Positions 5,577-7,465 of a stretch of DNA of 7,465 nt are shown here, piece after piece (within the stretch, counting starts at the first letter, position 1; the number at the start of each line of letters is the position of its first letter). The stretch comes from a virus (taxonomy: Duplodnaviria > Heunggongvirae > Uroviricota > Caudoviricetes), in the IMG/VR virus record IMGVR_UViG_3300028976_000016, positions 1 through 7,465 of that record; one strand, 5' to 3'. The notes below the pieces were generated by a model, which saw only the letters and a list, made by a program, of their open reading frames with translations, was not told the DNA's origin and did no database searches. A program made the translations under genes and the position numbers.

Positions 5577-5714
5577 GTGTTTGATTTTAGCAAACTGATT
5601 CGGGAGATTCGAGTGATGGCTGAAAAATTATCCACCTGGAAGTTCATTCTTATCTGGCTGGTGTTTGTGATTATGGCCTCCGGTTATTTCATCGGTCAGA
5701 TACGCTGGTGGTGA
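5577..5714 (+). CDS. Small single-pass membrane protein (about 45 aa), translationally coupled to Rz
   Basis: AAGGAG at 5566-5571 lies 5 nt before GTG 5577; an alternative ATG at 5616 follows GGGAG at 5602-5606. Product ...[40 protein letters not shown] has one hydrophobic helix. The TGA at 5712-5714 is 1 nt before the Rz ATG at 5716. It was missed by the ORF track because it is short. Confidence 0.35.
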
Positions 5715-5715
5715 A

Positions 5716-6180
5716 ATGAACCGCGTACTGTGCGTGGTCATCATTGCCCTGCTGGTGGCCTGTGGTGCGCTTAGTCTGGGGCTGAATCATTACCGTGATA
5801 ACGCCATTACCTACAAAGCCCAGCGCGACAAAAATGTCAGAGAACTGAAGCTGGCGAACGCGGCAATTACTGACATGCAGATGCGTCAGCGTGATGTTGC
5901 TGCGCTCGATGCAAAATACACGAAGGAGTTAGCTGATGCGAAAGCTGAAAATGATGCTCTGCGTGATGATGTTGCCGCTGGTCGTCGTCGGTTGCACATC
6001 AAAGCAGTCTGTCAGTCAGTGCGTGAAGCCACCACCGCCTCCGGCGTGGATAATGCAGCCTCCCCCCGACTGGCAGACACCGCTGAACGGGATTATTTCA
6101 CCCTCAGAGCGCGACTGATAATAATGCAAAAACAACTTGAAGGGGCACAGCTATACATTCGAGAGCAATGCCTCAGATAA
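5716..6180 (+). CDS. Rz: Rz i-spanin (inner-membrane spanin subunit), lambda-like
   Basis: N-terminal TM segment followed by [18 protein letters not shown]...[86 protein letters not shown], which is nearly identical to lambda Rz as recalled. Confidence 0.9.
5936..6118 (+). CDS. Rz1: Rz1 o-spanin (outer-membrane lipoprotein), embedded in the +1 frame of Rz
   Basis: Lipoprotein signal with lipobox (LPLVVVGC) and a proline-rich mature region ([31 protein letters not shown]), wholly nested inside Rz as in lambda. Confidence 0.9.
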
Positions 6181-6487
6181 AAACCGGCCAAGGATAATCC
6201 GCTGAAGATTCGCCGGTGGCTAAAGTGTGCCAAGAGTTCAATTTACGCAATTACTCCTGTCGATGCTATGTACCGTCTTTGTGAAGTCAATGGATACCTG
6301 ATTTATTTCTGTGCGCTGTATCGTCGCTGTACTCTTGCATTAATTATGACTGTAGCCTGACGGGGAACTCCTTCTGCACAAGTGTGGGGGAATAATCAAA
6401 AACGATGCACACCGGGGTTACCGGGTACACATATTTCATCATGCCAGCGAGTCCGGTTCTGGCACGGAAGAAACCGGACGTTATGAT

Positions 6488-6898
6488 TTAGTGCGGAAAT
6501 ATTTGTGTAGTGTTCTGAATGTTCTCAGTAAAGAGTAATGAATTATCAAAGGTATAGTAATACCTTTTGTTTTCGTGGATATTTGTAATCCATCTGAAAA
6601 CCCCTGCTGTAGCAAGATTTTTCCTGTATTCGTAAAATGATAACTCTCCTGATTTGAATCCTTTTAAGGTGGCTTCTATAAGGCATTTATTTTTTGAAAA
6701 TCTTACATTTACAACCTTACCCTGTCCTTTTATTAAAACCGTATTATCGTTTTCAAGAACAAGATGAATATTCTCTGTGGCTAAATAGTAAATGTAATGT
6801 GAGACATTGTGACGTTTTAGTTCAGAATAAAACCAGTGATAGTTTAAATTATTTCGCACTTTATCGAATATTTGTTTAAAAATGGCAATCTGAGCCAT
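6488..6898 (-). CDS. Hypothetical AT-rich protein (136 aa from the second ATG; 141 aa from the first), possibly YbcV/DUF1398-like
   Basis: Track ORF 6488..6913. The second in-frame ATG (6898) has a GGAAGG Shine-Dalgarno about 7 nt upstream, whereas the first ATG has only a C-rich leader. The gene is strongly AT-rich (by eye) and follows the RHH gene on the same strand with an intergenic spacer of about 57 nt. A weak hairpin (6451-6479) follows the stop. The family assignment is a low-certainty recollection. Confidence 0.55.
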
Positions 6899-6955
6899 TG
6901 TAGTACCTTCCATGTGATATGAGGGGGGGTAGTCTGCACGATTATCTAAATTGCT

Positions 6956-7189
6956 TCAATCTGGTCTGACCTGTTTTCTGAGCAATTCAGTAATGTCACT
7001 CTTTTCTTTGTTTGCTTCAGGCGAAACTCTTTTTTCTGAGCACAGTCTCCGGCGGCAGGCTTCAATGACCCAGGCTGAGAAATTCCCGGACCCTTTTTGA
7101 ACAAGAGCGATGTTAATTTGTTCAATCATTTGGTTAGGAAAGCGGATGTTGCGGGTTGTTGTTCTGCGGGTTCTGTTCTTCGTTGACAT
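6956..7189 (-). CDS. Small ribbon-helix-helix (Arc/MetJ/CopG-like) DNA-binding protein
   Basis: After a basic N-terminal tail (KNRTRRTTTR), the segment NIRFPNQMIEQINIALVQKGSGNFSAWVIEACRRRL fits a beta-strand / helix / G-x-S/N turn / helix RHH pattern. It is the last gene before cos, on the strand opposite the late genes. Confidence 0.6.
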   Translation of the reverse strand: MSTKNRTRRTTTRNIRFPNQMIEQINIALVQKGSGNFSAWVIEACRRRLCSEKRVSPEANKEKSDITELLRKQVRPD

Positions 7190-7388
7190 GAGGTTGCCCT
7201 GTATTCAGTGTCGCTGATTTGTATTGTCTGAAGTTGTTTTTACGTTAGGTTGATGCAGATCAATTAATACGATACCTGCGTCATAATTGATTATTTGACG
7301 TGGTTTGATGGCCTCCACGCACGTTGTGATATGTAGATGATAATCATTATCGCTTTACGGGTCCTTTCCGGTGATCCGACAGGTTACG

Positions 7389-7400
7389 GGGCGGCGACCT
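7389..7400. other. cosN cohesive-end site (lambda-type 12-nt GGGCGGCGACCT), with cosQ upstream and the start of cosB downstream
   Basis: 7389-7400 reads GGGCGGCGACCT, the lambda cohesive end. The preceding bases (...GGGTCCTTTCCGGTGATCCGACAGGTTACG) match the lambda right end, and the following bases (CGCGGTTTTTCACTATTTATGAAAATTTT) match the lambda left end with a few substitutions, as recalled. Confidence 0.85.
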
Positions 7401-7465
7401 CGCGGTTTTTCACTATTTATGAAAATTTTTCAGGGAAAATCGTGTCGGTACTTCTCGAATATAAC

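Follow-up and report, generated by a model that had tools for sequence, protein, structure and literature searches.

The Qin prophage of Escherichia coli K-12 carries two small adjacent genes, ynfO and ydfO (b4533-b1549), in which a 77-aa reading frame is followed, after 57 nt, by one of 136 aa. Related genes are present in phage lambda, as lambdap78 and an open reading frame (ORF) at 48109-48303, and in the prophage DLP12 as part of the series ylcI-ybcW-ybcV-borD. Members of the ynfO and ydfO families occur in the majority of E. coli prophages, and also in lambda itself, and few prophage genes of this species are commoner. The stretch of DNA analysed here (the window) comprises 7,465 nt, positions 1 to 7,465 of the IMG/VR virus record IMGVR_UViG_3300028976_000016 (Caudoviricetes), and contains a pair of minus-strand genes with the Qin layout between the Rz gene (5716-6180) and the cohesive-end sequence cosN. 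With a probability of roughly 55%, the locus was read as a Qin-type accessory block forming a leftward, moron-like unit that would respond to host signals through FNR and Fur, with a DUF3950 protein as its anchor and a DUF1398 protein as its cargo.

Both ORFs are co-oriented and lie opposite the late operon, as the original prediction had described. The 77-aa product matched Pfam PF13132 (DUF3950) with 72.8 bits (E 2e-20, curated cut-off 25 bits) and NCBIfam NF041551 (YlcI-YnfO) with 35.2 bits (cut-off 30 bits). The product of the second gene matched Pfam PF07166 (DUF1398) with 147 bits (E 3e-43, cut-off 22 bits) and aligned over residues 1-140 with the nuclear magnetic resonance (NMR) structure of E. 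coli YdfO (PDB 2HH8) at E 2e-69. Membership of DUF3950/YlcI-YnfO and of DUF1398/YdfO-like was therefore above the curated cut-offs for both proteins, and the mention in the original prediction of YlcI/YbcV-like genes at this position was borne out. The 136-aa form of the DUF1398 protein begins at the second ATG (6898), which is also the start chosen by RefSeq, and is preceded at a distance of 7 nt by the Shine-Dalgarno sequence GGAAGG (6906-6911). The predicted spacing of about 57 nt and a separate Shine-Dalgarno sequence for the second gene were thus found as described, as was its AT-richness: the G+C content of the 136-aa gene is 31.5% (30% at third codon positions), while the 77-aa gene has 44.9% and the window as a whole 45.8%.

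Over the 1266-nt region from 6200 to 7465 the window shares 100% identity with a prophage found in E. coli ATCC 11775 and in many B2 strains of extraintestinal pathogenic E. coli (ExPEC). At the ATCC 11775 locus RefSeq has labelled the genes 'ynfO: YlcI/YnfO family protein' and 'DUF1398 domain-containing protein', and these are followed after cosN by a Nu1/A-type terminase. Both genes are therefore already known and annotated, as YnfO/YlcI and YdfO/YbcV. The Qin genes belong to the same families and have the same order and the same strand relation to cos and nohA; window positions 6450-7429 share approximately 90% DNA identity with Qin, and FNR and Fur boxes are common to the two. Unlike Qin, the prophage of the window belongs to B2/ExPEC strains, has an intact Nu1/A-type terminase downstream and carries a Fur box with one outer mismatch.

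The original prediction had set this pair against the accessory genes of lambda, a contrast that does not hold, since lambda has homologues of both. The lambda DUF3950 ORF, a minus-strand YlcI-like frame of 64 aa, is intact but absent from the NC_001416 annotation, while the lambda-like records 4W, ev099 and O276 do annotate it. The DUF1398 proteins of lambda and DLP12 are homologous to that of the window with approximately 76% amino acid identity, and the DUF3950 N-terminal domain together with the upstream region through cos is 94-97% identical. The differences are that in lambda and DLP12 the plus-strand gene lambdap79/ybcW separates the two genes and bor follows downstream, both of which the window lacks, and that the C-terminal tail of DUF3950 differs from that of the window. 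Judged from these sequence comparisons, the block is a Qin-type allele of a lambdoid accessory block that is flanked by the lysis genes and the packaging module.

The distribution of the two families revealed that they are separable. In the phage collection DUF3950 was present in 153 records compared to 43 for DUF1398, and approximately 110 records contained DUF3950 without DUF1398. Stx-converting phages and other HK97-type packagers carry DUF3950 alone, 41 nt from and divergent to the HNH endonuclease gene, and in one other lineage it stands alone beside Nu1. Conversely, all 30 of the 30 diverged DUF1398 loci found in reference genomes lacked DUF3950 within 4 kb and had the appearance of stand-alone chromosomal genes; their hosts were Kluyvera, Klebsiella, Raoultella, Pseudocitrobacter, Citrobacter and the flavobacterium Epilithonimonas, and in E. 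coli the stand-alone gene is ycgX, beside bluR/bluF. Among 5426 complete E. coli genomes, DUF1398-like DNA was present in 5376 and DUF3950 DNA, counted by its N-terminal domain, in 4184, with up to 12 copies per genome. Searches of viral contigs gave near-identical loci only, which increased the counts and added no diversity.

In every variant DUF3950 came first among the genes that diverge from the packaging module, with modules of the Nu1 type and of the HNH-TerS-TerL type alike, while the content downstream of it varied between nothing, DUF1398 at a distance of 57 or 101 nt, ybcW with DUF1398 and bor, or other genes. The position of DUF3950 is thus fixed and what follows it is variable, which identifies DUF3950 as the anchor of the block and DUF1398 as an optional cargo. 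The first 49 codons of DUF3950 gave a proportion of nonsynonymous differences (pN) of 0.035-0.057 and a dN/dS ratio of 0.03-0.07, measured between lineages in which the synonymous sites are near saturation (pS 0.48-0.64), and DUF1398 gave a dN/dS ratio of 0.22-0.38. Both ORFs are therefore under purifying selection and are real genes rather than chance reading frames. DUF3950 consists of a near-invariant N-terminal region of about 50 residues and a hypervariable C-terminal tail, residues 50-77 in the window, that is wholly different in length and sequence among lineages; the break in homology between the window and lambda is located exactly at the boundary between these two parts.

The DNA from the start codon of DUF3950 to cos was more strongly conserved than the coding sequence. 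A 63-nt block within it (Table 1) exceeded the synonymous sites of the adjacent gene in conservation, including in lineages that are approximately 50% diverged at such sites. The block contains a perfect FNR consensus. The centre of this box precedes the ynfO ATG by 67 nt and the putative transcription start by approximately 41 nt, and nearly all Nu1-type loci have the box at an equal distance. A candidate -10 hexamer, conserved across lineages, is positioned 29-34 nt downstream of the centre of this box and would give ynfO a 5' untranslated region of about 26 nt. Class II FNR-activated promoters have a box centred near -41.5 and no -35 element. The perfect box and the correctly spaced hexamer agree with this geometry, and the ynfO unit most likely has a class II FNR-activated promoter.

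Further upstream there is a 7-1-7 Fur box, which matches 14 of 14 positions in lambda, Qin and DLP12. Its arms are invariant among lineages, with only the unconstrained central base varying, and the chance expectation of such a match in the window was 0.04. In one lineage (L207/L208) the cos side of the region has been replaced and the box has been kept with the gene. The site has been described before from the other side: Chen et al. (2007) predicted it as 'nohA' (22.3 bits, position -233) and 'nohB' (25.3 bits, position -133), a gel shift with Fur was shown for the Qin nohA oligonucleotide, and in vivo Fur titration had already yielded a Qin nohA fragment, while ynfO and ylcI were not considered (PMC2189734). 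As the box lies between divergent genes, ynfO/ylcI on one side and nohA/Nu1 on the other, the published nohA and nohB sites may belong to ynfO and ylcI.

Taken together, these features suggest that the accessory block would be transcribed leftward, against the late operon, from a class II FNR promoter, with the Fur box about 90 nt further upstream as a possible second input. The first product would probably be a small dimeric DNA-binding regulator, in which the conserved N-terminal region of about 50 residues most likely forms an Arc-like ribbon-helix-helix (RHH) domain. The AT-rich DUF1398 cargo, which has its own ribosome-binding site, would be functionally independent of ynfO. No terminator or promoter was predicted between the two genes, and the lack of a terminator-like site makes it likely that they are co-transcribed in this allele. 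Such a unit would be switched on under anaerobiosis and low iron, as a lysogenic-conversion moron, and not by the lytic programme of the phage. Expression data for the related genes lend weak support to control by host signals: ybcV and ybcW were increased 1.7-1.8-fold under microaerobiosis (PMC8910356), the mRNA of both was decreased approximately 10-fold in a pdhR mutant, ydfO was responsive to an ionic liquid, and ybcV was among the most copper-responsive genes in one study.

Several observations weigh against this reading. A scan of the minus strand upstream of ynfO with the sigma-70 consensus gave no promoter, a result that the class II geometry without a -35 element would explain. No operator for the DUF3950 protein was identified, and FNR half-sites can account for the inverted repeat inside the 63-nt block. 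The Fur box, 156 nt from the start codon, is too distant for direct repression of the proposed FNR promoter, and it may serve another promoter or plus-strand transcription to Nu1, as the literature has assumed. The HNH-type lineages of the Stx phages have neither an FNR nor a Fur box, and regulation through these proteins is therefore not universal to the family. In the standard view, furthermore, the only genes expressed by a lambda lysogen are cI, rexAB, lom and bor (PMC7067206).

The pair had originally been likened to a toxin-antitoxin or abortive-infection module. On this reading the RHH protein would be an antitoxin that represses its own synthesis, with a C-terminal tail neutralising a DUF1398 toxin. 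The resemblance is to the type II toxin-antitoxin systems with RHH antitoxins (RelBE, ParDE, FitAB, MazEF-mt), which likewise have a small, possibly RHH protein encoded upstream of a larger one on the same strand. In contrast to those systems, co-occurrence of the two genes is not obligate and the partner is often absent or separated, and with the families separable this reading fails its main test. The numbers of phage records, the 30 solitary DUF1398 loci and the unequal counts in E. coli genomes all speak against it, as does the opposite-strand gene ybcW/lambdap79 interposed between the two genes in lambda and DLP12. Where DUF3950 and DUF1398 do adjoin, the spacer is long (56, 57 or 101 nt) and the second gene has a separate Shine-Dalgarno sequence. 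Neither protein matched a toxin family in Pfam; among the PADLOC defence models the 77-aa protein gave no match and the 141-aa form of its neighbour matched only Csx23, at E 0.026. YdfO was moreover solved by NMR as a single chain, and so was produced without a partner, which would count against toxicity. A toxin-antitoxin or abortive-infection function is accordingly regarded as very improbable, and setting it aside removes a tempting mis-annotation. A different possibility is that one or both proteins take part in an arms race, as counter-defence or superinfection-exclusion factors or as components sensed by defence systems. The region is a hotspot of presence and absence, and lambdap79/ybcW, the neighbouring gene in lambda, triggers the Vulcan NADase defence; phages that escape Vulcan lose lambdap79 by recombination with Qin, which gives the arrangement of the window (bioRxiv 10.64898/2026.09.04.749371). 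In the lambda comparison sequence (L003) lambdap79 occupies 2339-2545 and the DUF3950 ORF 2710-2904. The block borders a gene recently shown to be a defence trigger, and the window is naturally in the lambdap79-less, Qin-type arrangement. The lack of a PADLOC match and the occurrence of DUF1398 homologues in housekeeping chromosomal contexts, including in Flavobacteriia, are less easily accommodated, and such a role appears unlikely.

The fixed position of DUF3950 could alternatively reflect an action at the packaging junction itself, where the protein would bind DNA near cos or the first packaging gene, either insulating the terminase from leaky transcription in the lysogen or modulating cos recognition or termination, with DUF1398 as unrelated cargo. 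DUF3950 is directly divergent from the first packaging gene in two unrelated packaging systems, at about 200 nt from cosN in one and 41 nt from the HNH start codon in the other; its N-terminal domain is highly constrained even where no cargo follows, and the family has been reported in capsid-forming phage-inducible chromosomal islands with TerS/TerL (PMC13612085). Against this, no DNA motif was common to the upstream regions of the Nu1-type and HNH-type loci, and DUF3950 may stand where it does simply because a module boundary tolerates insertions. Minimal cos fragments are also packaged without a DUF3950 gene in cis. A packaging function is therefore considered doubtful. In a broader proposal, DUF3950 would be no passive moron but a dedicated, near-invariant DNA-binding regulator at the lysis/packaging junction in most lambdoid prophages of E. 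coli and in lambda, one that reads anaerobiosis and iron through FNR and Fur and holds DUF1398, ybcW and bor as interchangeable cargo under its control. We give this broader proposal only a small chance; if it were true, DUF3950 would govern a basic process so far missed in lambda, such as the silencing or insulation of terminase and cos cleavage in lysogens, or cross-talk between prophages resident in one cell. The moron-like unit with a conserved anchor and an optional cargo is the reading retained here, and with DUF3950 recognised as a constrained anchor behind FNR and Fur sites, a 'hypothetical protein' becomes the subject of a regulatory hypothesis that can be tested.

The RHH fold assigned to the 77-aa protein in the original prediction was examined by modelling and by profile comparison. 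The AlphaFold2 model of the monomer gave an extended RNIRFP segment followed by two helices at residues 19-32 and 34-53, with a predicted local distance difference test score (pLDDT) of approximately 80. When compared using hhalign, the RNIRFP segment aligned in the correct register with the FNLRWP strand and helix A of Arc, with a weak score (E 0.021 against Arc and 0.0053 against the Arc/Mnt profile, probability below 7%). Support from fold and profile databases was not obtained: a Foldseek search of the PDB with the RHH model gave no match, the DUF3950 profile matched no PDB sequence at E <= 10, and a low-threshold Pfam scan of 19 DUF3950 members gave no RHH family, not even a weak one. An RHH fold of the N-terminal domain is therefore plausible and weakly supported, and is not statistically established by these models and alignments. 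For DUF1398, a model built from a shallow alignment of 20 sequences had a pLDDT of 46.6, and its Foldseek search returned only 2HH8, recovered by sequence (template modelling score 0.29), with no fold neighbours. The immI region of phage P22 encodes a small RHH repressor, Arc, and then a larger effector, Ant, set in late-gene territory. The present locus resembles arc-ant in its layout, with a small Arc-like protein encoded ahead of a larger accessory one, but homology to Arc is not demonstrable at the E values given above and DUF1398 is unrelated to Ant.

No paper in the library searched gives DUF1398 or DUF3950 a function, consistent with the view in the original prediction that the function of the pair is uncharacterised, and a multi-tool in silico study of 2025 drew no inference for the paralogue ycgX. 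The modest additions made here are the analysis of separability, the constraint on the DUF3950 N-terminal domain with its fixed position, the FNR promoter proposed for ynfO and the suggested reassignment of the nohA and nohB Fur sites. A published statement that overexpression of YdfO raises resistance to oxidative stress (PMC4077768) proved to be a confusion of gene names with YfdO of CPS-53: Wang et al. (2010; PMC3105296), the paper cited for it, reports YfdK, YfdO and YfdS of CPS-53 and never mentions ydfO, and the statement was for this reason left unused. A listing of ydfO as essential, obtained only by TraDIS, was likewise not used as evidence. In lambda, lambdap78 is non-essential by CRISPR interference (PMC10695390), and the 'essential' score of lambdap79 in such data is probably due to a polar block of the late transcript that crosses the region. 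DUF1398 proteins carry the label 'head protein' in PHROG 413 and in RefSeq phage records, including that of lambdap78, and 'putative envelope protein' in older records. Both labels are unsupported because the gene is located away from the head cluster and on the other strand, is dispensable, encodes neither a signal peptide nor a membrane segment, and has homologues in chromosomes outside phages.

Table 1. Coordinates of the accessory block and its surrounding elements in the 7,465-nt window.
Feature	Position	Strand	Remarks
ynfO-type gene, 77 aa	6956-7189	-	DUF3950 / YlcI-YnfO family
ydfO-type gene, DUF1398	6488-6898 (136 aa); 6488-6913 (141 aa, from alternative upstream ATG)	-	
Spacer between genes, 57 nt (ynfO stop codon to ATG 6898)	6899-6955	-	With Shine-Dalgarno sequence and C7/G7 run
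Candidate -10 hexamer GACAAT	7223-7228	-	Sequence and lineage comparison; GATAAT in a diverged lineage
Perfect FNR consensus TTGATCTGCATCAA (TTGAT-N4-ATCAA)	7250-7263	-	Exact match
63-nt conserved block	7250-7312		Invariant in 7 of 9 compared lineages
Inverted repeat ATCAATTA-N17-TAATTGAT	7259-7291		Inside 63-nt block
Fur box, 7-1-7 type (TGATAAT-N-ATTATCA)	7338-7352		13 of 14 positions match; centre 156 nt upstream of ynfO ATG
cosN, 12-nt cohesive-end sequence GGGCGGCGACCT	7389-7400	+	Marks start of packaging module
8-bp hairpin	6451-6479	-	9 nt past DUF1398 stop codon
Conserved non-coding block, about 120 nt	6311-6430		Downstream of module

Within the spacer, the G7/C7 tract noticed in the original prediction is present, one position further on than had been given (6923-6929 instead of 6922-6928), and is not conserved among relatives. 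The two ORFs of the window are in frame and separated by one TGA, and two apparent DUF3950-DUF1398 'fusion' proteins from metagenome catalogues (P0013 and P0014) were artefacts in which TGA had been read as tryptophan. Programmed read-through was rejected, since the spacer is 56 nt in approximately half of the close relatives and the in-frame relation is thus not conserved. The leader RNA upstream of ynfO had no unusual structure (z -0.29), and a scan of 6200-7465 against Rfam returned no family. The hairpin beyond the DUF1398 stop codon was not convincing as a terminator (z -1.04, no U-tract). The non-coding block downstream of the module is 80-86% conserved in lambda, DLP12 and ev099, and also in Stx phages that have no DUF1398. 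Its homologue in lambda is located upstream of bor and contains a promoter annotated in the HK630 record; the copy of this promoter in the window is degenerate, with TACAGC instead of TACAAT. A further promoter-like site, TTGACT-16-TAGCAT at 6263-6290 on the minus strand, faces left into the 3' end of Rz; the sequence there is not shared with lambda, and beyond the site there is only a 46-aa ORF that overlaps Rz.

Among the database matches, a tblastn hit in Pasteurella phage Pmp7 was discarded because it runs antisense to a gene annotated there. Singleton protein clusters with odd N- or C-terminal extensions, dozens in number (P0018-P0120 and P0143-P0240), originated from ENA contigs of approximately 3.4-3.6 kb that span the right end of lambda; these resemble copies of a lambda control fragment with many errors and do not look like real diversity.

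Elsewhere in the window, a G7 homopolymer (5040-5046) divides the endolysin gene (4883-5417) between two frames. RefSeq describes the identical locus of ATCC 11775 as 'rrrQ lysozyme, frameshifted', and the prophage is therefore probably lysis-defective. A run of ten N (4063-4072) within the holin region appears as XXXX in the ORF translations. Downstream of the Q antiterminator gene are three tRNA genes (2733-2805, 2816-2889 and 2906-2979), and between Q and this cluster a 235-aa regulator of the AraC family (HTH_AraC, HTH_18; 1997-2704) is inserted, another probable moron, located in the region of the late promoter. Also downstream of Q, the small RNA STnc100 was identified on the plus strand at 3058-3266 with 131.7 bits, and on the strand opposite to it the AsxR 'anti-stx2' small RNA at 3269-3321, with a score exactly at the gathering threshold of 63 bits.

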